From: a virus
DNA length: 56,602 nucleotides
Virus record (IMG/VR): IMGVR_UViG_3300045988_059190
Direction: 5' to 3' (one strand)
Shown: in pieces, positions 19,529-29,396 of the stretch
How positions within the stretch are numbered: the stretch's first letter is position 1
How the letters are laid out: every line of letters starts with the position of its first letter
Made by a program: the position numbers and the translations under genes
The notes under the pieces: generated by a model
What the model was told of the DNA's origin: nothing
Seen by the model: the letters and a program-made list of their open reading frames with translations, nothing else
Database searches by the model: none

Positions 19529-19612
19529 ATGGCAACAAGTACGATTAATATTATTGTAATTTGCGTTTTTCTGCTTCTGATAACGAAGATTCCAAACAGA
19601 AAGGATAAATAA
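19529..19612 (+). CDS. 27-aa hydrophobic peptide downstream of holin
   Basis: MATSTINIIVICVFLLLITKIPNRKDK. RBS-like GGAAAGGA. Its stop overlaps the ATG of the next gene. Confidence 0.35.
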   Translation: MATSTINIIVICVFLLLITKIPNRKDK

Positions 19613-20844
19613 TGCTTACGCCGGAATATCTCTTTCATGTGACCGAGGGAGCGGAACAGATAACATCGGATATGCATAAGAACATCATGGACATGATCGT
19701 TGATCGTATAATGGTGCGTATAGGTCGTGGGGAAGATTATCTCCTTACGGCTACGGACAGGTGGCAGATACAGGTGTTACAAGAATCCGGGTACTTACTG
19801 GAAGACATACAAAAAGAGATTGCTGACAAAACGAAGAAGCAAGAGAGCGAGCTTAAAAGCGCATTTGAAGAAGCTGGTATAAAAGCTATCGAGAGAGACG
19901 ATGCGATATATAGGGCGGTAGGACTATCACCTACGCCCTTATTGCAATCTCCGGCATTGCTCAGAATACTGGAAAGAGATTATAACGCTACGTGCGGAGA
20001 ATGGAGAAACCTTACACGAACAACGGCAGATGAAGCACAGAAATTGTTTTTGAAAGAGGTCGACACAGCTTACCGCATGACATCAAGCGGTGCCGTATCA
20101 TATACACAAGCTGTCAGAAATGCTGTTGACAGGATGATAAAGCAAGGCGTTAAAGTATCGTATCCGTCCGGCAGAGAAATGAGCATTGAATCAGCCACAA
20201 TGATGACTGTACGCACAGGGATAAGCCAGTGTTCCGGAGCAATCGCACTAAAGCGAATGGAAGAATTGGGATGGGATACCATCTTAGTATCTGCACATGT
20301 GGGTGCACGAATTGGTGATGGTGGCAACAACCCAACGAACCACTTTTGGTGGCAAGGAAAATTCTATTCCCGGACAGGCAAAGACAAGAGATTCCCGGAC
20401 TTCCGAACATCAACAGGCTACGGAACGGTGACAGGGTTGTGTGGCGTGAACTGCCGACACTCTTTCGGATCCGGTGACGGTGAAAACAATCCGTATGCAG
20501 ATATTAACCTGTCGAGCGAAGACAATATAAAAGCGGAAGAGCGTGCGAAAAAGCAACGGCTTATGGAAAGGCGCATCCGCAACAGCAAGAGAGAGATTCA
20601 GAATTTGCAGACTGCTATAGATGCAAGCGGAGATGACAAGCTTAAATTCGAATTGCAACAGGCATATGACCGAAAATCAGCGGTACTCAGACGGCAGAAT
20701 AAGCAATACCGTGAGTTCTGCAAAGAAAATGGACTTAAAGAATATTCGGAACGTCTACGGGTAGCACAGTGGGATAGGTCGCAGGCTGTGAAGTCTGCAA
20801 AAGCAGCACAAAGATATCTTAATGCGAAAGGTGATGCAAAATGA
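19612..20844 (+). CDS. head morphogenesis protein (SPP1 gp7 / Mu F family)
   Basis: The core motif GLCGVNCRHSF and the long basic coiled-coil C-terminus are typical of the family. Confidence 0.8.
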   Translation: MLTPEYLFHVTEGAEQITSDMHKNIMDMIVDRIMVRIGRGEDYLLTATDRWQIQVLQESGYLLEDIQKEIADKTKKQESELKSAFEEAGIKAIERDDAIYRAVGLSPTPLLQSPALLRILERDYNATCGEWRNLTRTTADEAQKLFLKEVDTAYRMTSSGAVSYTQAVRNAVDRMIKQGVKVSYPSGREMSIESATMMTVRTGISQCSGAIALKRMEELGWDTILVSAHVGARIGDGGNNPTNHFWWQGKFYSRTGKDKRFPDFRTSTGYGTVTGLCGVNCRHSFGSGDGENNPYADINLSSEDNIKAEERAKKQRLMERRIRNSKREIQNLQTAIDASGDDKLKFELQQAYDRKSAVLRRQNKQYREFCKENGLKEYSERLRVAQWDRSQAVKSAKAAQRYLNAKGDAK

Positions 20845-21113
20845 GTGGATTGACAAGAATGGCAAAAATGTGCAGAGAGTGTCCGTTTAAAGACAAGTGC
20901 AAGAATAAGCGGTTGGAGAAAGAAGCGTATCTTACACCTTTTACCTCACCGATTATTGAAGATATGGCATCACCTGTATTAAAGGCTCATGATTACAGAA
21001 ATGTAAAGGTTGCAGAAAACACGACAATCACTATTGATGTAGAGGAACTGAAAGAGAGAATGCGAAAAGAAATATACAGGCAAGCCGGAATCGGATTGAA
21101 TTATGGAGCGTAA
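20841..21113 (+). CDS. hypothetical protein
   Basis: 90 aa with N-terminal CRECPFKDKC. Confidence 0.5.
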   Translation: MSGLTRMAKMCRECPFKDKCKNKRLEKEAYLTPFTSPIIEDMASPVLKAHDYRNVKVAENTTITIDVEELKERMRKEIYRQAGIGLNYGA

Positions 21114-21116
21114 CAC

Positions 21117-21476
21117 ATGGAACTAATAACACAGATACTTGCTATATGCGGTGCTATATCTGTTATCGGTGGTGCTGTTGCGGTGCTTTCCGGGTGGTAC
21201 AAATCATGGAAAGCACCAAAAGAAAAACAGGATAACCGCATAGAACAGATTGAAAAGCGAATAACGAACATTGAAACATCTATCACAGGGATTAATCAGA
21301 AACTTGATAACGATTATAAGAACATAAGGAATACGAGGGATGATATGAATCTATTAATGAGAAGTATGTTTAATTTGATTGAAAACAAAATCACAGGGAA
21401 TAACATTGAGGGTTTAAAAAAAACTCGGGAAGAGCTTGTAAATGCTATGACGGACAAGAAACCAAAGGAATTATGA
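21117..21476 (+). CDS. membrane-anchored coiled-coil protein
   Basis: N-terminal TM segment ILAICGAISVIGGAVAVLSGW. Confidence 0.5.
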   Translation: MELITQILAICGAISVIGGAVAVLSGWYKSWKAPKEKQDNRIEQIEKRITNIETSITGINQKLDNDYKNIRNTRDDMNLLMRSMFNLIENKITGNNIEGLKKTREELVNAMTDKKPKEL

Positions 21477-21673
21477 AAATATACTCTTTTACACGACCAG
21501 AACTTGACTATTTTGAGTTAGAATGCAACTTTACATCGGATGAATTGAAACTGTTTCGGCTCCGTGCTAAAGCTATGCCTTTAGAGGACTGTGCGGAAGA
21601 AATGAATGTGAGTGTGTCTACAGTCAAGAGATTGAGTAGAAGAGTGAATGATAAGATTGAAAGGGTGGTATAA
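21473..21673 (+). CDS. small HTH protein (sigma-70 region-4-like)
   Basis: LKLFRLRAKAMPLEDCAEEMNVSVSTVKRLSRRV. Confidence 0.5.
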   Translation: MKIYSFTRPELDYFELECNFTSDELKLFRLRAKAMPLEDCAEEMNVSVSTVKRLSRRVNDKIERVV

Positions 21674-21677
21674 GGTT

Positions 21678-22112
21678 ATGTATGAAATGTATTTAGGCTT
21701 TGGCTACAATGAAATTAGAAAAAGAGAAGAAGAAAGAAAACGCTACGAAAAAGAATTTGAAAAAAGACTTAAAAAATATGTCAATAAAATAGCCAAGACA
21801 TGCAGGTGGCCGAAAAAGAAAAAAGAAAAAATCTTTGATTTTATTCTCAGACATAGTTCGCTACATATACTTGAAGAAACATATGAAATTATTCCATCTC
21901 CTTTTATTGAATATTATTTAAAAAAAGAAAATGGACAATGTCCTGTTCTTCTTACATGTATTGTATTTCAAAATTATGGCAAACGAACTTGGGTAAAATT
22001 TTATTTTGATGAATACGGGGACATGGTATTCAAGCAAGAGATTGCCGAAAAAATCAAAAAATATTATGAAGAATATGATAGATACAACGACTTTGATATT
22101 ATTTTTGGTTAA
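21678..22112 (+). CDS. hypothetical protein
   Basis: ATG 21678 lies just after the upstream stop. K/E/Y-rich and AT-rich coding. Confidence 0.5.
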   Translation: MYEMYLGFGYNEIRKREEERKRYEKEFEKRLKKYVNKIAKTCRWPKKKKEKIFDFILRHSSLHILEETYEIIPSPFIEYYLKKENGQCPVLLTCIVFQNYGKRTWVKFYFDEYGDMVFKQEIAEKIKKYYEEYDRYNDFDIIFG

Positions 22113-22140
22113 AACGTAAGAGCGAAAGGGTTGTATAGGT

Positions 22141-22479
22141 ATGTGGATTGAAGATATAAAACCTTGTAAAGCGTACATCGAAGCAACTGGTCAAGAAGTA
22201 TCGGGCGTACTTGGGATCGGTGAAATAAGTTTTTACTCTGGTTTGATTATTGACGAAAAAGGAAGAAAGAAATATAAGTATGGACATACAACGCATATTC
22301 CTGTTTTTAAAACTGCTGAATTTGTAAAACCTTTTGAGTATTTTTCGAATGTCCATACAGAAAAAATAGATTTCCAAGCATATTACGGATCAAGTGCTGA
22401 AACTAATACATTTTGCTTAGTTGGAGCAAAACCAATATCTGAAGAAGAACACAACAAAATAACAGGTACAAATGGATGA
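22141..22479 (+). CDS. hypothetical protein
   Basis: 112-aa ORF. Confidence 0.5.
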   Translation: MWIEDIKPCKAYIEATGQEVSGVLGIGEISFYSGLIIDEKGRKKYKYGHTTHIPVFKTAEFVKPFEYFSNVHTEKIDFQAYYGSSAETNTFCLVGAKPISEEEHNKITGTNG

Positions 22480-22505
22480 TTATATGATTGAAAGGGGATA
22501 AAGAT

Positions 22506-23132
22506 ATGAACTTCGGAGAAGCCATAAAATGTATGAAAAATGGAAAGAAAGTTACACGTAATGTATGGAAAGAAAACTTTTTTAATGGGAGAAAACAGTT
22601 TATTTTTATTGGAAGAAACAAAGGTTTAACGACAAAAACGTTTCTTTCACTTCCACCAGAAGATGAACAATTCTCGGACTGCATTATGGGTTACACACGA
22701 AAAGGAAGCTTTCAGCCAAACTGGACACCAGCGCAAGAAGATATGCTTGCTGAGGATTGGGAAATGTATCCGGCAGAGGAAACGGTAGTCGATGAAACGC
22801 CGAACATGACGGCAGATGAAATGATTGATCTCAAAAACCGTATTGGGTGGAATATTAAATTTTATTCTACCGGGGAAACAATTATTTCTGAGCACATGGA
22901 CTATCAAAAACTCTTAACCGTGGCAGAAAGTACATATATGCTGTCGTTTGTTGTCCCTGAAAAAAGCCTTTATGGTTTGTCAATGACAAATAAATGCCAA
23001 AATGTTATTGTTTCTGGACTTTTATTCAAAGTATATGCTTCTAGGAATATTGCTGACGATAGCCTTTGGCTCGTGACTGAAAGTGCCTTATCTGAAAAAG
23101 AATTTCACACAATTATAAGATTGGAGAGGTGA
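22506..23132 (+). CDS. DUF2829 (Tad2-like) domain protein with unknown C-terminal extension
   Basis: MNFGEAIKCMKNGKKVTRNVW ... PNWTPAQEDMLAEDWEMY matches the start and end signatures of DUF2829. About 120 further residues are unassigned. RBS is GAAAGGGGA. Confidence 0.7.
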   Translation: MNFGEAIKCMKNGKKVTRNVWKENFFNGRKQFIFIGRNKGLTTKTFLSLPPEDEQFSDCIMGYTRKGSFQPNWTPAQEDMLAEDWEMYPAEETVVDETPNMTADEMIDLKNRIGWNIKFYSTGETIISEHMDYQKLLTVAESTYMLSFVVPEKSLYGLSMTNKCQNVIVSGLLFKVYASRNIADDSLWLVTESALSEKEFHTIIRLER

Positions 23133-23136
23133 TTCT

Positions 23137-23598
23137 ATGATACCTAAGATTTTTAAAATAAGTGGATATCTCATAGACCCGACAGGCAGACTTGAACCAC
23201 ACCACATTAAGGCGAAAATGCTTTACGGCTGTGGATTTCCACTTGTAGGACAGCACATTCACGTACAGAAAGCAGAGATTAAGAAGCTGGATGAAAAGCA
23301 TCCACTCATGAGAGAGAACTGTGATTTGGCAGAATGCGAGAAGTATTTCAATGACGAACCTCCGACAGTGAGCAATAGAAAAGTTGAACCCGGACAGGTG
23401 TACAGGCACTTTAAGGGCGAGACAGTAAAAGTCCTGTATATTGCACAGGATAGCGAAATGCCGGGACAGTTCAAGGTAGTTTATGAATGCTCTAATGGCG
23501 TGTGGTGCAGACCTTACGGAATGTTTGTGAGTGAGGTAGACAGGAAGAAACACCCGGATGTGAAGCAGAAGTATAGATTTGAGTTAGTGGAGGAATAA
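23137..23598 (+). CDS. protein with C-terminal DUF1653 domain
   Basis: PGQVYRHFKGETVKVLYIAQDSE...VVYE...WCRPYGMF...RFELV. Confidence 0.65.
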   Translation: MIPKIFKISGYLIDPTGRLEPHHIKAKMLYGCGFPLVGQHIHVQKAEIKKLDEKHPLMRENCDLAECEKYFNDEPPTVSNRKVEPGQVYRHFKGETVKVLYIAQDSEMPGQFKVVYECSNGVWCRPYGMFVSEVDRKKHPDVKQKYRFELVEE

Positions 23599-23919
23599 AT
23601 GCAAAAAGTAAATATTCTTGGAACGGAATACGAAATAATTAGAGAAGCGTTTGAAGAAGAAACGATTGATGGTTTTTGCGACTATACAGCGCATGTAATC
23701 AAAATCAGAAACAATAATGTAAGCGAAGTTGGTGATTTTGAAAAACTTATGAAAAAGCAATTAAGGCATGAAATCATACATGCTTTTCTTGCTGAAAGTG
23801 GATTACAGGCAAACTTTGAACATTATAAACAGTTCGGACATGAAGAAACAATCGTTGACTGGTTCGCCATTCAATTTCCTAAAATCATGGAAGTGTTTGA
23901 AGAACTGGGAGTACTGTAA
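23599..23919 (+). CDS. small HExxH-motif protein (putative metallopeptidase-like)
   Basis: QLRHEIIHAFLAESGL. Confidence 0.5.
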   Translation: MQKVNILGTEYEIIREAFEEETIDGFCDYTAHVIKIRNNNVSEVGDFEKLMKKQLRHEIIHAFLAESGLQANFEHYKQFGHEETIVDWFAIQFPKIMEVFEELGVL

Positions 23920-23937
23920 GAAAGGACATAGAAAAAT

Positions 23938-24084
23938 ATGAAAGATTATGTAGAAGTAAACGAAGAAAAATGTGGTGAAGTCCATAATTGCATGTGTGTA
24001 AAAGAAAAAGATGGTAAAATGTACTGCCGTGGGTGCGGTAGTGTCATTGCGGAACATATTAAAAATTCAAAACGCGCAAAATAA
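23938..24084 (+). CDS. small zinc-ribbon-like protein (48 aa)
   Basis: C..x..C.C ... CRGCG. Followed by a terminator. Confidence 0.4.
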   Translation: MKDYVEVNEEKCGEVHNCMCVKEKDGKMYCRGCGSVIAEHIKNSKRAK

Positions 24085-24099
24085 TAAGTGATACTTTTT

Positions 24100-24134
24100 A
24101 GAGACTTTAACGAACTGTTAAGGTCTCTTTTTTA
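24100..24134 (+). terminator. intrinsic terminator
   Basis: 12-bp stem AGAGACTTTAAC / GTTAAGGTCTCT with one G-T pair, followed by T6. Confidence 0.75.
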
Positions 24135-24189
24135 TGCGTAAAATGAAAGCATAGAGAACAACAAATGCTAATTTACAGGAGGTATGAGT

Positions 24190-24615
24190 ATGAATCCATA
24201 TATGTCATATACACCGTACATGCCACAGGATGCTTATATGCAAGACCAGATGGCATTACGACAACGGATAGACAACTTATCACAGGCTCAACAGCAATAC
24301 AAGACACAGCCACAGCCGAATGTGAACTGGATACAGGTAGCCGGAATTGACGGGGCAAGAAATCAGATTGTACAGCCGGGAACAACGGCTTGGATGATGG
24401 ATAACAATGCGCCATACTTTTATGTTAAATCTGTTGACGGCGTGGGAAGTGTTACGTTTAAAGCTTTTGAATTCCATGAGGTACAGGCGAACAATCCACA
24501 ACCTGTAGTGGAAAATATGGACGCTAAGTACGTGACAAGAGAAGAATTCAACAAATTACTGGATACATTGAAAACTCAACCGGAAGAACAGAAAGGGGAG
24601 ATGACACATGAGTAA
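24190..24615 (+). CDS. orphan protein with Y/M/Q/P-rich N-terminus
   Basis: AGGAGG RBS. MNPYMSYTPYMPQDAYMQDQ..QAQQQYKTQPQPN, then a globular part NWIQVAGIDGARNQIVQPGTTAWMMDNNAPYFYVK. Confidence 0.6.
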   Translation: MNPYMSYTPYMPQDAYMQDQMALRQRIDNLSQAQQQYKTQPQPNVNWIQVAGIDGARNQIVQPGTTAWMMDNNAPYFYVKSVDGVGSVTFKAFEFHEVQANNPQPVVENMDAKYVTREEFNKLLDTLKTQPEEQKGEMTHE

Positions 24616-24862
24616 TCCATTAATGGGAATGATGGGCGGTATGCCGGGTGGCAACAGTCCATTCGGAATGATTCAAAGAATGATGGGGATGGTGCAGAGT
24701 ACACAGAACCCCGGAGCAATGTTACAGAATATGGCGCAGAGCAACCCGAACATCAAAAAGGCTATGGATATGTGCCAAGGAAGAAACCCGAAAGATGTAT
24801 TTATGGAGATGTGCCAGCGAAATGGCATGAATCCAAACGACATTATAAATAAAATAAAGTGA
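24608..24862 (+). CDS. orphan Met/Gly/Asn/Pro-rich low-complexity protein
   Basis: 84 aa: GMMGGMPGGNSPFGMIQRMMGM..QNPGAMLQNMAQSNPNIKK..GRNPKD..GMNPNDI. Confidence 0.55.
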   Translation: MSNPLMGMMGGMPGGNSPFGMIQRMMGMVQSTQNPGAMLQNMAQSNPNIKKAMDMCQGRNPKDVFMEMCQRNGMNPNDIINKIK

Positions 24863-24914
24863 TATCCGGACGGAGTGCACACGTCTTGATAAATAAAAGA
24901 AAAGGAGAACCAAC

Positions 24915-25583
24915 ATGAACGAGGGATTAAACACACTTAGTGCTGCCGATGTAGCAGCAGTCACAAGAAACAACGATGGAAACATGTGGGGTGACGGTGG
25001 ATGGTTCTGGATCATTATTCTTGCTTTCCTGTTTTGCGGTAACGGATGGGGAAACAACAACGGAGCACAGGACGCTTTTATCTCTGACGAATTTGTGAAA
25101 AGAGATATCTTTAATACAAATCAGAATGTGTCTAACACAGCTTGTGAGACACAGAGAGACGTATTAGAGAACCGCTATAACACACAGCTCGGCTTGCAGA
25201 ACTTACAGGCTCAGCAGTCTCAGTGTTGCTGCAACACACAGAAAGAGATCTTACAGAGTAGATATGATGCGGCATTACAGGCACAGAACATGCAAGCACA
25301 GATGGCTCAGTGTTGCTGTGATATCGAAGAAAAAATCCTGGCAGATGGACAGGCTACACGCCAGTTAATCCAGGATAACACGATTCAGAACTTGAGAGAT
25401 AAGCTTGCTGATCGTGACAGAGATTTGCAGACAGCATACTGGCAGATCTCACAGGTATCACAGACCAATAACATTATTGATGCAGTGAGACCGACACCAA
25501 AACCGGCTTATATGTCTTGCAGTCCATACTTTGCGTATAACGCATTTGGCAATGGTTGCTGTGCAAGTGGGAATGTGATGTAA
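24915..25583 (+). CDS. orphan membrane-anchored Q-rich protein with CCC triplets
   Basis: Hydrophobic segment GGWFWIIILAFLFCGNGWG. Two repeat units, QAQQSQCCCNTQKEILQSRYD and QAQMAQCCCDIEEKILADGQ. C-terminus is GNGCCASGN. Confidence 0.6.
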   Translation: MNEGLNTLSAADVAAVTRNNDGNMWGDGGWFWIIILAFLFCGNGWGNNNGAQDAFISDEFVKRDIFNTNQNVSNTACETQRDVLENRYNTQLGLQNLQAQQSQCCCNTQKEILQSRYDAALQAQNMQAQMAQCCCDIEEKILADGQATRQLIQDNTIQNLRDKLADRDRDLQTAYWQISQVSQTNNIIDAVRPTPKPAYMSCSPYFAYNAFGNGCCASGNVM

Positions 25584-25790
25584 GTGAACGATATATCACT
25601 ACTTGACTTTCTGACAGTGTACGGAGTTGCTTTACAGATTGCGAATTTTAACAGTGATCTATCACAGGCGAGTAATTCTGACATTGAAAAACACTTGCAC
25701 GAGCAAGACAGTAAGTACTTTTTAAAAATAATTGAAAACCAAAACAAAATCATAAGCATGTTGGAAGAATCCATATCTACAAAAAAGTAG
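25584..25790 (+). CDS. hypothetical protein
   Basis: GTG start abuts the upstream stop. 68 aa. Followed by a terminator. Confidence 0.45.
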   Translation: MNDISLLDFLTVYGVALQIANFNSDLSQASNSDIEKHLHEQDSKYFLKIIENQNKIISMLEESISTKK

Positions 25791-25805
25791 TCTTGCGAAG
25801 ATTAA

Positions 25806-25836
25806 AGAGAGTAGGCATGCGCTTGCTCTCTTTTTT
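25806..25836 (+). terminator. intrinsic terminator
   Basis: Stem AGAGAGTAGGC / GCTTGCTCTCT, loop ATGC, then T6. Confidence 0.7.
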
Positions 25837-25853
25837 AAGAAAGGAGAAAAAAT

Positions 25854-26282
25854 ATGTTAAATTCTATTGCTAAAAATGCTCAGACAGTAGCAACAAATCA
25901 GAATGTATTATTTACAGAAACAAGAGTGAAAAGCCGTAGATGTGCTTGTAACACAGGATGGCTTGCACATGACAACGGCAGTGGACTTTTTGAAATCACA
26001 AACCGTGGAAATCTGCCAATGGCGGTCGAAGTTGAGTTTAACGGAAACGTTACGGCATCTGCAATAGGAGCGGTAGCGTTATCTATCAAACAGAACGGGG
26101 AACCGGTTTCTGGTACGGAAATGGACTATACAGTAGCAACGGCAAATGTGTATCAGAATGTCGGTGCAGCTACATTGATTGCAGTTCCGGCTGGAAGTAG
26201 TGCCACTATATCGGTTGGCAACGTTGGCACAGTTGACACATTGGTTAAGGATGCGAATATCATCATCAAAAAGCTCTCATAG
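25854..26282 (+). CDS. orphan all-beta protein, BclA-C-terminal/C1q-like pattern
   Basis: The alternating strand pattern GLFEITNRGNLPMAVEVEF..ALSIKQNGEPVSG..ATLIAVPAGSSATISVGN..DANIIIKKL resembles BclA_C jelly-roll domains. The call is weak and made by eye. Confidence 0.55.
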   Translation: MLNSIAKNAQTVATNQNVLFTETRVKSRRCACNTGWLAHDNGSGLFEITNRGNLPMAVEVEFNGNVTASAIGAVALSIKQNGEPVSGTEMDYTVATANVYQNVGAATLIAVPAGSSATISVGNVGTVDTLVKDANIIIKKLS

Positions 26283-26299
26283 AAAAGGGGTGAGTTTCT

Positions 26300-26890
26300 A
26301 TGATTGATTTTAAAAGCAACCTAGATGTTAAAACTCCGAAAGAAATCTTTGCCGGAATTAATGAACGGTTTATCGGAGCGGTCATGATGCACGGACAGTT
26401 TGCGGACTACTTCGATTTCCTTGGCTTAAAAGGCTTTAAGCGGATGCATGAGTACCAGCACATTGAGGAAAGCTTGGAACGTAGGAAAGTGTGCCGATAT
26501 TTTATAAACCATCACAATCAGCTTATTGATGATGCATTTGAGGGAAAAGTGAATGTTATCCCGGATGCGTGGCGAACGGCCAAACGGTTAAGCGTTGGAA
26601 AAAGTACAAAGCAGAAAGCCGTAGAAGATGGATTTGTTGAGTACCACAATTGGGAATCCGAAACAAAGGAAGTGTACGAACAGTACGCACACACGCTAAG
26701 AGAAAACGGTCATGTGGCTGATGCTATGTTCGTGGAATGTTTGGTAGAAGATGTAAGCGAAGAATTAAAAACTGTAGAATGTATGATTAACGACCTCATA
26801 TCTGCCGGATACGACATGGTATACATCACAGAAATTCAGTCGGAGATTCACGACAAATACAAAAAGAAAATGAAAGGAATCGAGGTGTAA
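26300..26890 (+). CDS. orphan helical protein, ferritin-like four-helix pattern
   Basis: GAVMMHGQFADYFDFLGLKGFKRMHEYQHIEESLERRK and MFVECLVEDVSEELKTVECMINDL resemble ferritin A/B and D helices. Metal ligands are incomplete. Confidence 0.5.
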   Translation: MIDFKSNLDVKTPKEIFAGINERFIGAVMMHGQFADYFDFLGLKGFKRMHEYQHIEESLERRKVCRYFINHHNQLIDDAFEGKVNVIPDAWRTAKRLSVGKSTKQKAVEDGFVEYHNWESETKEVYEQYAHTLRENGHVADAMFVECLVEDVSEELKTVECMINDLISAGYDMVYITEIQSEIHDKYKKKMKGIEV

Positions 26891-26893
26891 TAA

Positions 26894-27316
26894 ATGAGCG
26901 AGATCAAAAAGATTTTGGAAGAACAGCTTGAACGTGAGAAAGCATCTGCAAAGAAAGACTTAAATATGTCTAACTTACAGGCAATGTACATGATTACATC
27001 TACATTGTGCAATATGAAATCTTTGGAATGTGAAAGCGTACCGGGGATGATTGCGGATGCATCGGAAAACCTTATCAAGAAATACAGTAACGGAAAGTAC
27101 GACAAAAACATTGATGCGCTATACGACCAGTACATTATGGCGAAAGAGATGTATCAACAGAACGGAGATCAAGCGCACAGAGACAAACTGATGGAAAGTG
27201 TCGGGAAACTTATGGTAGAAGTTTACGACATGCTTTCCTCTATGGTGATGGATTCAGATTTTGCGGAAGAACGGAAAGAGATTCAAAGGCAAATCAAGAA
27301 GCTTGCGGAAATGTAA
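26894..27316 (+). CDS. orphan helical protein
   Basis: 140-aa ORF closely spaced after the previous gene (3-nt gap). Confidence 0.55.
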   Translation: MSEIKKILEEQLEREKASAKKDLNMSNLQAMYMITSTLCNMKSLECESVPGMIADASENLIKKYSNGKYDKNIDALYDQYIMAKEMYQQNGDQAHRDKLMESVGKLMVEVYDMLSSMVMDSDFAEERKEIQRQIKKLAEM

Positions 27317-27399
27317 AAACATGGGTACGGAGTACTATGTATATTAATGTTACGATATATACGGTGAATCACATAGGACATTTCCCTTTCTTGCTTGAT

Positions 27400-27696
27400 A
27401 CACCTCCTTTCAATAAAGCCTAATAGCGGAATGCTGATTAAAGGGCGGTCAAACGCCCGTTAGGCTTTCCCCTAAGGTTGCGGACTTGGGGAACCGTCAT
27501 CTTATGTTAGCTCCTAAAGATATAATATGATAAATTTTCATTCCGCAAAGGATAGTGCACAGTATGGTGCATGGATTCATGTCCGGCTATCCTTTTTCTG
27601 TATAGAGTTAGTTACGGAACAATATGCAGATTGACCGTCAAATAGCCGTAACAGTGGTTGGAACTGTATAGAGGGAACACTTGCACCAACCACTAA
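27400..27696 (+). ncRNA. candidate large structured RNA (class unknown; ROOL/GOLLD-like context)
   Basis: No RBS-led ORF. Helices are 27415-23/27460-68 (9 bp) enclosing 27443-47/27454-58, then 27467-72/27488-93, then 27550-55/27587-92 enclosing 27556-60/27567-71, then 27611-17/27646-52 (7 bp), then 27653-61/27686-94 (9 bp). Boundaries are uncertain. Confidence 0.45.
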
Positions 27697-27786
27697 CGGG
27701 ATATAGTTCAATGGTAGAACGCAGATGTTTCCTCTTTCGTTACATAATAGCATCTGAGACATGTGGTTCGAATCCGCAGAACCCGA
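27697..27786 (+). tRNA. tRNA-like element / aberrant tRNA with expanded anticodon loop
   Basis: D arm GTTC-AATGGTA-GAAC and T arm TGTGG-TTCGAAT-CCGCA are canonical. The acceptor pairs at only 5 of 7 positions. The anticodon stem CAGATG/CATCTG closes 23 nt instead of 7. No CCA is encoded. Confidence 0.35.
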
Positions 27787-27867
27787 TTACCCCGGCAGAG
27801 GTTCATCTGTCTGAATCCCTACCGCAGACGAAGCGGTTAATAAATGACGTTGAGGAGGATATGCAAC

Positions 27868-28476
27868 ATGAAAAATATTATTCAGATTATCAAAGATTCT
27901 GGTCTTGAAATTACAGATGAGCAGAAAAAGACAATCGAAGATGCAGTGAAAGAGAATTACAAAAGCGTATCTGACTATGAAAAGCAGACACGAAAAGTAG
28001 AAACTCTGACACAGGAACGTGACAACTTTAAAACGCAGTATGAAACAGCGAAAGAGACTTTGGACGGGTTCGAGGGAAAAGACTTCGATGCGATCACAAG
28101 AGAACGTGATGAGTGGAAGACGAAAGCCGAGAACGCAGAAAAAGAATGGAAAGACAAGCTTGATGCCAGTGAAAAAGAGTACAACCAGAAGATTGAAGAA
28201 AGAGACTTCAACGATGTTCTGAAAAAAGCTCTTGCGGGCGAGAAATTCAGTTCTGATTTTGCAAAAACAGGAATCATCAACATGATTAAAGACAAGGGCC
28301 TGAAACGTGAGGGTGAAAAGATTCTCGGTCTTGATGATTACATGAAAGAGCTGAAAGAATCTCAGAAAGATGCTTTCGTGACGGATGGTAAGACACCGCC
28401 AGTATTCACTACACCTACAGAAAAAGGCAGAAGTGAACAGAAAGCAGAGCCGTTTGTTCCTGGAACTGTTTGGTAA
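27868..28476 (+). CDS. scaffolding protein (GP20-like)
   Basis: GAGGAGG RBS. K/E-rich coiled coil ending in GLDDYMKELKESQKDAFV. Lies immediately upstream of the capsid gene. Confidence 0.75.
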   Translation: MKNIIQIIKDSGLEITDEQKKTIEDAVKENYKSVSDYEKQTRKVETLTQERDNFKTQYETAKETLDGFEGKDFDAITRERDEWKTKAENAEKEWKDKLDASEKEYNQKIEERDFNDVLKKALAGEKFSSDFAKTGIINMIKDKGLKREGEKILGLDDYMKELKESQKDAFVTDGKTPPVFTTPTEKGRSEQKAEPFVPGTVW

Positions 28477-28544: not shown

Positions 28545-29396
28545 ATGGCAGAAACAACAAGAATTACATCGTTAAACATGTTACTTGACCCAACCGGAAA
28601 AATGCTTCTTGCAGAAGAGTACGGAAAGGTCATTGAAAACGTCCAGAAGAACACTATTTCTGGAAAAATGAAGAATACCGAACTTTCCGGTGATCCGTCA
28701 GCCGGAACCGTAGAAGCAAAACGATTCGCAAATGCGACATCTAAGAATTACGGAACCGCTAGAGGTGCATCTAAAGGTGATGGAGTAAAAGGAAAGCCGG
28801 TTACGATTCCGATTGATGTTGATAAGGAAATCGTAGAAGAGGTTGAACAGAAAGACGTATCACTTCTCGGAGTAGAGGGGCTTATTGCAAAAAGAACAGC
28901 GAACCATGCGCTTAGAATGATCGCAGAACTCGACACTGAGTTCTTCAAAGTTGCCGGAACAGATGCAACGGAAGTTGATCTGACAGGCGTTACAGCTATT
29001 GAGGAACAGGCTGAAACAATGATTCAGCAGTGCGAAACTACCAAGAATGAATATGTGGACGGAGTACCACGTTCTATGATGAACATGATCTGCACACCAA
29101 AATTCTATGGAAAAATCCGCACATATCTGGACAAGGTTACAGTGCCGGGGGTTGGCGTAGCTGACGAAGAGTTCTATGCTTATCATGGTGTAAAAACATT
29201 CTCATGCGTACACATGCCGACAGACGTTGAGGTGATCGTAATGGTGGATGGAGCTATCGCACAGCCGGTTAAATCCACACCATACAGCGCTGAAAAGATT
29301 CCTCTTTCAGAAGCATACGGTATCGAACTCTTCTACCATTACGGAACAAAGTCTGTAATGCCAGACCTTATCTTCAAAAACAAGAAAGGTGAGTAA
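28545..29396 (+). CDS. major capsid protein
   Basis: 283 aa, directly after the scaffold gene, with strong RBS AAAGGAG. Assigned by position and size. Confidence 0.7.
   Translation: MAETTRITSLNMLLDPTGKMLLAEEYGKVIENVQKNTISGKMKNTELSGDPSAGTVEAKRFANATSKNYGTARGASKGDGVKGKPVTIPIDVDKEIVEEVEQKDVSLLGVEGLIAKRTANHALRMIAELDTEFFKVAGTDATEVDLTGVTAIEEQAETMIQQCETTKNEYVDGVPRSMMNMICTPKFYGKIRTYLDKVTVPGVGVADEEFYAYHGVKTFSCVHMPTDVEVIVMVDGAIAQPVKSTPYSAEKIPLSEAYGIELFYHYGTKSVMPDLIFKNKKGE

Follow-up and report, generated by a model that had tools for sequence, protein, structure and literature searches.

In plant mitochondria, non-canonical cloverleafs termed t-elements guide ribonuclease (RNase) P and RNase Z in generating the 5' and 3' ends of messenger RNAs (mRNAs) (PMC1920247). 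In Bacillus subtilis, precursors without CCA are cut by RNase Z 3' of the discriminator nucleotide and CCA blocks the enzyme, and RNase P acts first where the 5' leader is long (PMC1874595). GP20-a (RF02991) and GP20-b (RF03003) are motifs upstream of GP20 genes, and six further candidate RNAs have been described ≤25 nucleotides (nt) upstream of such genes (PMC10690425). The locus analysed here, the non-coding gap of ~550 nt at positions 27317-27867 of the virus record IMGVR_UViG_3300045988_059190 (56,602 nt; the whole stretch is called the window), lies directly upstream of a scaffold gene of the GP20 family and is built of pieces of known kinds: transfer RNA (tRNA)-derived elements, RAGATH-21 and its surroundings, and candidate cis-regulatory RNAs upstream of GP20 genes. 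What appears to be undescribed in searchable sources is that a tRNA or tRNA-like position is coupled exactly to the leader described below, that a family of anticodon-less tRNA mimics occupies this position, and that RAGATH-21 is present in the same cassette.

The gap is a composite of separable conserved RNA modules carried by a large group of phages of gut Clostridia. From 5' to 3' these are a CU-rich tract with a three-way junction, lineage-specific hairpins with a terminator-like stem, a tRNA-derived element, and a two-hairpin leader (Table 1). By analogy with the systems above, we propose that the tRNA-like element may serve as a cleavage signal for RNase P and RNase Z, one that would define where the scaffold-capsid mRNA begins; the proposal is tentative, and we would give it a probability of about 45%.

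Well over 100 gut-phage contigs in IMG/VR encode a capsid protein 98-99% identical to that of the window, and their gaps are 88-99% identical to the one studied here. Forty-six distinct gap versions from these close relatives were aligned and the pairing of the helices, the cloverleaf and the leader hairpins was scored. The proposed helices were paired in 95.7% of the cells, as against 36-41% in slid controls, and nine pairs carried compensatory double changes, spread over the 5' element (outer stem), the CCCC/GGGG hairpin, the terminator-like stem (inner hairpin), the T stem and both leader hairpins. Both in this alignment and in that of the leader, G:U pairs are compatible with the plus-strand reading alone. 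The folding energy is modestly below that of shuffled sequences on either strand (z about -2.7). Diversity (pi) was computed over 59 relatives, taking the third codon positions of the flanking genes (0.09-0.12) as a roughly neutral yardstick; the cassette elements vary 2-8 times less than these positions and are under purifying selection well above that level. Searches of the INPHARED phage records returned zero matches (blastn with the gap, tblastn with the capsid protein), and a scan of viral contigs with the capsid alignment returned only the close relatives already known.

The helices that had been read from the window in the initial annotation were all found in their places: AAAGCCTAA/TTAGGCTTT around GGGCG/CGCCC, TTCCCC/GGGGAA, GGATAG/CTATCC around TGCAC/GTGCA and followed by T5, GTTACGG/CCGTAAC, and AGTGGTTGG/CCAACCACT. 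In homologous loci, on which it had suggested that covariation be checked, several helices show compensatory changes, and the leader covaries strongly. The two helices at 27611-52 and 27653-94 are present but invariant in all relatives, and hence draw no support from covariation.

The same annotation had offered two readings of the whole stretch, namely a very large ornate RNA of the GOLLD or ROOL type, or an undescribed phage RNA with an embedded tRNA-like module. The ~550 nt without an open reading frame (ORF), the many helices, the tRNA-like neighbour and the setting in a Firmicute phage all suit a single large RNA, whether of a described type or of a new class of that size, but we consider this extremely improbable. 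Rfam was run twice, over the whole 56.6-kilobase (kb) window at the gathering score and permissively, at E≤10, over 27200-27950. In the entire window the tRNA was the sole match above its gathering score (29 for RF00005), and the permissive scan gave nothing credible beyond it: no GOLLD, ROOL, raiA, transfer-messenger RNA (tmRNA) or T-box, no known self-cleaving ribozyme, no group I or group II intron, no GP20-a or GP20-b and no RAGATH match. Moreover, neither the minimum-free-energy folds nor the consensus folds contain long-range pairs between modules, and the modules come apart in relatives. In the group L066-L080 (L-numbers designate related loci, ~460 of which make up the comparison set), with a capsid 87% identical, the gap measures only 317 nt and directly follows the minor-head gene. 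These loci keep the CU-rich tract and the three-way-junction element, with compensatory changes, as well as a homologue of the hairpin at the anticodon position in the window, a minihelix of acceptor and T arm, and then the last ~80 nt. Some 230 nt of the window gap (27494-27696) are lineage-specific and absent from the L066/67 group, and only the last ~80 nt are common to the window and more distant relatives. A GOLLD/ROOL-type unit was therefore rejected, as the modules separate, their spacings differ, the 550 nt are not kept as one unit and no covariance model of that kind matches. The second reading came nearer the truth, but what it took for one RNA is a set of separable modules, several of them of known kinds.

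Two further candidates were also discarded. A group I intron within the tRNA would be expected to exceed 200 nt, whereas the insert measures ~16-18 nt, and no intron model matched. A conserved small ORF is contradicted by indels of 1, 2 and 4 nt, which break the short ORFs of the gap in close relatives.

Table 1. Features of the scaffold-gene upstream region in the window, with diversity (pi) among 59 relatives.
Feature	Position	Strand	Description	pi
Minor-head gene	19612-20844	+	upstream of the 6.5-kb block of small ORFs	
ORF of 140 amino acids	26894-27316	+	function not known; 5' neighbour of the gap	
Gap (non-coding cassette)	27317-27867	+	between the 140-amino-acid ORF and the scaffold gene	
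CU-rich tract	27389-27414	+	holds CACCUCCUUUC (27401-27411), like the 3' end of 16S ribosomal RNA (anti-Shine-Dalgarno)	
Three-way-junction ('Y') element	27415-27468	+	outer stem 27415-23/27460-68	
Three-way-junction hairpins	27425-27/27433-35; 27443-47/27454-58	+	loops GGAAU and GUCAAA, respectively	
Hairpin UUCCCC/GGGGAA	27467-27493	+	loop UAAGGUUGCGGACUU	
5' three-way-junction element plus hairpin				0.030
Branched terminator-like stem	27550-27597	+	outer stem 27550-55/27587-92, then U5	0.044
Inner hairpins of branched stem	27556-60/27567-71; 27573-75/27582-84	+		
Two long-loop hairpins	27598-27696	+	27611-17/27646-52 and 27653-61/27686-94	0.012
tRNA-like element	27697-27786	+	Rfam tRNA 37.2 bits, model positions 1-71	
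tRNA-like element, 5' half				0.015
Acceptor stem	27697-703/27779-85	+	5/7 pairs, A:A and A:G mismatches	
D arm	27706-09/27717-20	+	loop AAUGGUA	
Anticodon-position stem	27722-27/27751-56	+	23-nt loop	
T arm	27762-66/27774-78	+	loop UUCGAAU	
Discriminator	27786	+	A, then UUA, not CCA	
Leader	27787-27867	+	~80 nt, 5' UUACCCC, two hairpins; start codon at 27868	0.037
Leader hairpin 1	27794-99/27806-11	+	loop GGUUCA	
Leader AAUCC	27814-18	+		
Leader hairpin 2	27822-25/27833-36	+	loop AGACGAA	
Shine-Dalgarno sequence	27852-59	+	GAGGAGGA, in the leader	
Linkers				about 0.065
Scaffold protein gene	27868-28476	+	Pfam PF06810 Phage_scaffold (formerly Phage_GP20), E = 1.5e-19; PHROG 194 head scaffolding protein	
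Major capsid gene	28545-29396	+	3' of the scaffold gene	

The leader was collected from viral contigs and metagenomes with search patterns free of tRNA sequence, which yielded ~200 further loci falling into 41 clusters at 92% identity; 57 distinct leaders were aligned. Their consensus consists of (Y)UACCCC, hairpin 1 with the loop GGUUNA, NAAUCC, hairpin 2 with the loop GACG, the Shine-Dalgarno sequence GGAGGAU and AUG. Across these 57 sequences 95.9% of the cells in the two hairpins are paired (30-57% in slid controls), double changes occur in seven of the 11 pairs, one pair is found as five pair types, and none of 500 shuffles reaches the observed value. With R1, a covariance model of the leader, the window scores 88 bits, and three loci (L157, L179 and L161) were found with it independently of the search pattern. 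No Rfam model matches the leader in the window or in the related loci scanned. On this comparative evidence we regard the leader as a well-supported predicted RNA motif outside Rfam. RNAalifold also pairs AUCC with GGAU of the Shine-Dalgarno region; with columns that are invariant and partly fixed by the search pattern, this modelled pairing is offered as a suggestion.

As with the GP20 motifs, the leader is a structured candidate cis-regulatory RNA directly before a PF06810 gene. Unlike GP20-a and GP20-b, neither of which matches in the window, it folds into two short hairpins with the loops GGUUNA and GACG. It may nevertheless be the same as one of the six further models (e.g. DNAVirus_56, DNAVirus_6837), whose description makes no mention of tRNA coupling (PMC10690425). 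GP20-b itself matches seven more distant prophages (Oscillospiraceae), whose capsids belong to the same family, and there it stands right in front of the scaffold gene.

At 27805-27828 the 3' half of the tRNA had been suspected to recur in degenerate form; this sequence is instead the linker together with the 3' strand of hairpin 1 of the leader, and hairpin 1 is kept in phages with unrelated tRNA anticodon stems. In Lachnospiraceae prophages from metagenome-assembled genomes, with capsids 61-67% identical, a low-scoring tRNA and then a homologue of 27787-27867 stand before the scaffold gene. Two distant leaders (L179:2764-2850 and L161:2808-2895; 48 and 34 bits with R1) were observed right after a terminator hairpin, without a tRNA. 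To judge from this distribution, the leader and the tRNA position are separable.

The cloverleaf at 27697-27786, which had been described with five of seven acceptor pairs and a 23-nt loop in place of the anticodon loop, proved to be genuine, as the Rfam tRNA match covers it. It retains what the elbow and top half of the molecule are made of, from acceptor stem, discriminator and T arm to U8 and the GG in the D loop; G53:C61 and the T loop UUCGAAU are present as well. Its T arm, GGTTCGAATCC with a 5-base-pair (bp) stem, fits GGTTCRANYCC, the T-arm motif of t-elements. The anticodon-position loop has 23 nt if the stem is taken as 6 bp, and 25 nt if it is taken as 5 bp, against the normal 7 nt, and the 7-nt anticodon loop with U33 and purine 37 that marks a decoding tRNA was not found. 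With a 23-nt loop at the place of the anticodon loop, the element is therefore predicted to be unable to decode. By default ARAGORN called no tRNA and no tmRNA in the whole window; a tRNA was called only when an 'intron' was allowed, and such 'intron' calls differ among the tRNA-like alleles. In comparison with phage tRNA genes, the element is likewise of tRNA descent, and sister phages hold genuine tRNAs at the same position; it differs in lacking the 7-nt anticodon loop, an ARAGORN call, two of the seven acceptor pairs and, by prediction, decoding.

The likeness to t-elements lies in the non-canonical cloverleaf, the intact GGTTCRANYCC T arm, the position adjoining an mRNA end (here a predicted one), the dispensable anticodon region and the proposed action through RNase P and RNase Z. 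In contrast to t-elements, the present element belongs to a bacterial virus rather than to an organelle or nucleus, has a fixed junction to a structured leader, and is interchangeable in relatives with real tRNAs and with RAGATH-21. A further analogue is mascRNA at the 3' end of MALAT1.

Among close relatives the 3' two-thirds of the element exist as three unrelated alleles, while the 5' acceptor strand and the D arm are identical in all. The window allele has the 23-nt loop and the imperfect acceptor; in the majority allele the stem at the anticodon position differs and is compensated, the loop varies from 22 to 28 nt, the T stem is perfect and the acceptor has 7/7 pairs; the third has a normal 7-nt loop and is called tRNA-Lys(UUU) by ARAGORN. 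Over 33 distinct variants of the majority allele the loop drifts, whereas all four stems remain unbroken. A recombination breakpoint was noted inside the element just after the D arm (27697-27721 versus 27722-27786; L001-L153), and one allele is accompanied by a diverged leader and scaffold N-terminus; from these patterns the window allele looks like a recombinant.

The position occupied by this element was then compared across the 41 leader clusters. Since an acceptor-stem search over 200 nt gives chance matches of 6/7, the T arm together with its position, and ARAGORN, were relied on instead. In 37 of the 41 clusters a TTCRANT loop sits on a perfect T stem of 5 bp, and the 3' strand of the acceptor and the discriminator abut the (Y)UACC of the leader. 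About 29 of these 37 have no CCA and pass directly into UUACC, CUACC or UACC; 8-9 clusters encode CCA, followed by 0-5 nt before the leader. The remaining four clusters have RAGATH-21 (three) or a three-way-junction element (one) at that exact place, in each case ending in a long closing stem. ARAGORN called a canonical tRNA in 21 clusters (Met, Ile-UAU, Thr, Gln, Gly, His, Pro, Lys and Ala), a tRNA only with an 'intron' in 6 and none in 14. The aberrant forms retain the acceptor and T arms, nearly all without CCA. Their anticodon regions range from loops of 14-28 nt and inserts of 16 to >60 nt to a 5-nt loop, a hairpin with a GCAA tetraloop (L268) and minihelices devoid of D or anticodon arm (L066/67, L402). 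As the anticodon region varies and the acceptor and T arms are retained, the conserved part is the half recognised by RNase P and RNase Z, not the part used in decoding.

Some members of this family stand out. Perfect acceptor, D and T arms occur with inserts of 61 to ~80 nt in place of the anticodon arm in three loci (L412:353-466; L384, ~2127 back to 1947 on the minus strand; L422:~115-250 of the region extracted), and these inserts match no Rfam family at E≤1. In the Lachnospiraceae prophages, ARAGORN reports a 'tRNA-Thr(CGU)' (L155:2705-2778, L156:2711-2785, L158:2733-2806) with mismatches at 1:72 and 27:43 and with G32 and U37 in the loop; the Rfam tRNA scores are low (39.1 bits for L155, 40.8 for L158). 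These three may be tRNA mimics rather than decoders.

The main rival explanation holds that the position is a hot spot of tRNA-gene insertion where a tRNA remnant is decaying, so that only the leader, and perhaps the upstream elements, would be functional. Canonical tRNAs at the position in 21 of the 41 clusters, several with tRNA arrays, are what it predicts, and so are the window allele with its 5/7 acceptor and chimeric make-up (identical 5' half, swapped 3' part), the varying loop length of the majority allele, as if without constraint, and the failure of ARAGORN to find a functional tRNA in the window. However, the stems of the majority allele have stayed intact through 33 variants despite the drift of the loop, constraint on the 5' half equals that on first and second codon positions, and independent lineages have lost or replaced the anticodon arm while keeping a perfect T arm and the exact junction, which is not what neutral decay predicts. 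We therefore consider this explanation unlikely, although it is the strongest of the competitors. The initial annotation had itself named ordinary terminators plus a decayed tRNA as what could undo its proposal: one terminator-like stem and a tRNA-derived element are indeed there, but that scenario leaves the strong purifying selection and the family-wide exact abutment to the leader unexplained.

At the 5' end of the cassette, CACCUCCUUUC occurs as a single exact copy in the window, directly 5' of the three-way-junction element. The same tract also precedes this element in the L066/67 group and in L418, and L414 has a CU-rich variant. That CACCUCCUUUC might be a ribosome-binding site on the minus strand was rejected, as no start codon or ORF lies beyond it in the window or its relatives. 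The outer stem of the three-way junction shows compensatory changes from GC to AU among close relatives, and the element as a whole shows further ones with respect to the L066/67, L414 and L418 versions; it lies at the position of RAGATH-21, and the L418 copy abuts the leader directly. In the adjoining UUCCCC/GGGGAA hairpin a CG pair has become UA in 12 of 46 relatives. The resemblance of its loop, UAAGGUUGCGGACUU, to the RAGATH-21 core GAGGUUGAAAAGCGGA is a lead only.

RAGATH-21 (RF03097) is a regular member of the cassette in relatives, on the same strand and upstream of the tRNA position (L276, L280, L297, L338, L384, L387, L388, L390, L402, L404, L412) or directly against the leader (L403, L405, L421), with model scores of 71-86 bits. 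In all 13 copies examined, a terminator and then the tract CACCUCCUUUCUU, similar to the 3' end of 16S ribosomal RNA, stand immediately 5'. The window likewise has this tract followed by a multi-stem element at the same position, and shares CCUAAUAG and an AGGUUG..CGGA loop; the agreement in strand, position and tract shows a common position, not membership. Unlike the four-stem RAGATH-21, it has a three-way junction and a separate hairpin. We read 27389-27493 as a positional counterpart of RAGATH-21 and, because the RAGATH-21 covariance model gives no match in 27200-27950 at E≤10, not as a member.

Other observations concern the surroundings of RAGATH-21. ACCUCC in CACCUCCUUUCUU is complementary to an invariant GGAGGU inside RAGATH-21, and could form a pseudoknot or a 5' extension beyond the Rfam model; both sides are invariant, without covariation. 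Skipping-rope RNA (RF02924), whose original description gives an association with nearby protein genes and no function, occurs in the same cassette next to tRNAs (L154:159-238, L157:2388-2476, L276:10362-10445). Three loci (L338, L388, L404) share an element ...CAUAUGCGGUCGCGGUAUAUGCGCAA...GGGAAUCGCAC... ~60-150 nt upstream of the tRNA position, and it matches no Rfam family at the gathering score.

In the middle of the gap, the branched terminator-like stem has a compensatory change from CG to UA in an inner hairpin in four sequences. Simple terminator hairpins stand at the equivalent place in seven relatives (L155, L264, L268, L439, L444, L446, L457), and a consensus terminator scan did not call the branched stem (27550-27597) on the plus strand. 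The stretch that follows, 27598-27696, is the most conserved of the 3-kb neighbourhood. The stems of its two long-loop hairpins are invariant in 46 of 46 relatives, and a direct repeat, CTGTATAGAG (27598-27607 and 27664-27673), brackets the hairpins, with exact copies nowhere else in the window. This lineage-specific stretch could act as RNA or as DNA.

Control at the level of DNA or transcription was weighed, with 27598-27721 taken as a late promoter, an operator or an anti-termination site whose protein binding is conserved. The lowest diversity of the neighbourhood combined with invariant stems and no covariation, the terminator-like stem immediately upstream, and a direct repeat unique to this place would all suit such a site. 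On the other hand, no sigma-70-like promoter was found in 26800-28300, CTGTATAGAG is absent at the other operon starts in the window, and the stretch is lineage-specific, whereas leader and tRNA position occur throughout the family. We judge this explanation improbable; it is, moreover, compatible with the processing proposal for the parts downstream. The idea that CTGTATAGAG is a genome-wide promoter or operator motif was rejected, as exact copies exist at the two local sites only.

The enlarged loops themselves raised the question of a trans-acting small RNA or decoy on a tRNA scaffold, in which the tRNA body would stabilise the enlarged loop and free it as an abundant small RNA late in infection; a CU-rich loop resembling an anti-Shine-Dalgarno sequence would then pair with mRNAs, or the element would titrate tRNA-binding host factors or defences. 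CU-rich expanded loops have arisen independently (UUUCCUCUUUC in the window, GUUUCCUUCCUUGA in L411, UUCCUCU in L333, CACCUCCCC in L382), and the anticodon-position hairpin of the window is homologous to one kept in the L066/67 group. However, the energies of predicted duplexes between the loops and the local Shine-Dalgarno regions are no better than those of shuffled loops, even close relatives differ in the sequence and length of the loop, and other lineages have shrunken loops or unrelated long inserts, all of which makes a trans-acting role very improbable. An action of the enlarged loops as anti-Shine-Dalgarno sequences for the scaffold ribosome-binding site was discarded after failing the same shuffle test.

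The late genes of the window are all on the plus strand. Between the minor-head gene and the cassette, 20844-27316 holds ~6.5 kb of small plus-strand ORFs, function not known, among them a Gln/Cys-rich repeat protein with CCC motifs (24915-25583). In L066-L080 a minor-head orthologue (66% identical) is followed by the cassette directly, without this block.

We return to the proposal that the tRNA-like element directs processing. In several relatives, less than 15 nt separate the upstream terminator hairpin from the tRNA; this leaves no room for a promoter, and argues that tRNA and scaffold gene are co-transcribed with the upstream RNA. In the proposed sequence of events, the cassette would be transcribed together with the late genes, and host RNase P would cleave where the tRNA-like element begins. 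RNase Z would cut just after the discriminator A27786, because UUA and not CCA comes next. The scaffold-capsid mRNA would thereby be freed from the upstream transcript with a defined 5' end at U27787, and the upstream mRNA would be left with an end near a 3' hairpin. At the new end the leader would fold and shield the mRNA from 5' decay, gate ribosomes through the pairing of AUCC with GGAU of the Shine-Dalgarno region, or both. The outcome would be a high output of the two most abundant head proteins, independent of the upstream genes. We infer this role from the rules of RNase Z and RNase P, the analogy with t-elements, and the presence of UUA and the leader start at the junction with no promoter found. 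It is further favoured by the exact abutment in 37 of the 41 clusters, by the retention of the top half alone, by the low diversity of the 5' half and of the leader, and by the strong covariation of the leader.

Several points weigh against this proposal. With two acceptor mismatches, the window allele may be a poorer substrate than the majority allele. The CCA encoded in 8-9 clusters blocks RNase Z in B. subtilis, and those clusters would need another 3' route. The leaders of L179 and L161 follow a terminator without a tRNA, and the leader can thus do without one. About half of the elements are ordinary-looking tRNAs and could simply be genes in a well-expressed spot. Finally, the host is assigned to the Lachnospiraceae/Clostridia by related prophages only, and its RNase Z rules are assumed from B. 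subtilis.

A broader version of the processing proposal, possible but on balance doubtful, would see here a 'tRNA punctuation' of bacterial viruses, in which one fixed position takes interchangeable structured RNAs and the late polycistronic transcript would be cut before the leader, at a defined nucleotide. The interchangeable set would comprise real tRNAs, anticodon-less mimics, acceptor plus T-arm minihelices, and RAGATH-21 with its variants, all offering a closing stem to host RNases, with the conserved stabilising or regulatory leader downstream. If true, it would give RAGATH-21 a first proposed role, as a processing signal, and would account for the placement of phage tRNA genes.

For annotation, tRNA matches of this type are not to be counted as decoding tRNAs, and the cassette provides a testable context for RAGATH-21 and for 'odd' phage tRNA predictions with enlarged anticodon loops. 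If the processing proposal is true, Firmicute phages would join organelles and eukaryotic nuclei in using tRNA-like signals for mRNA processing, and it would become clear how these abundant gut phages set the levels of scaffold and capsid apart from those of the neighbouring late genes.

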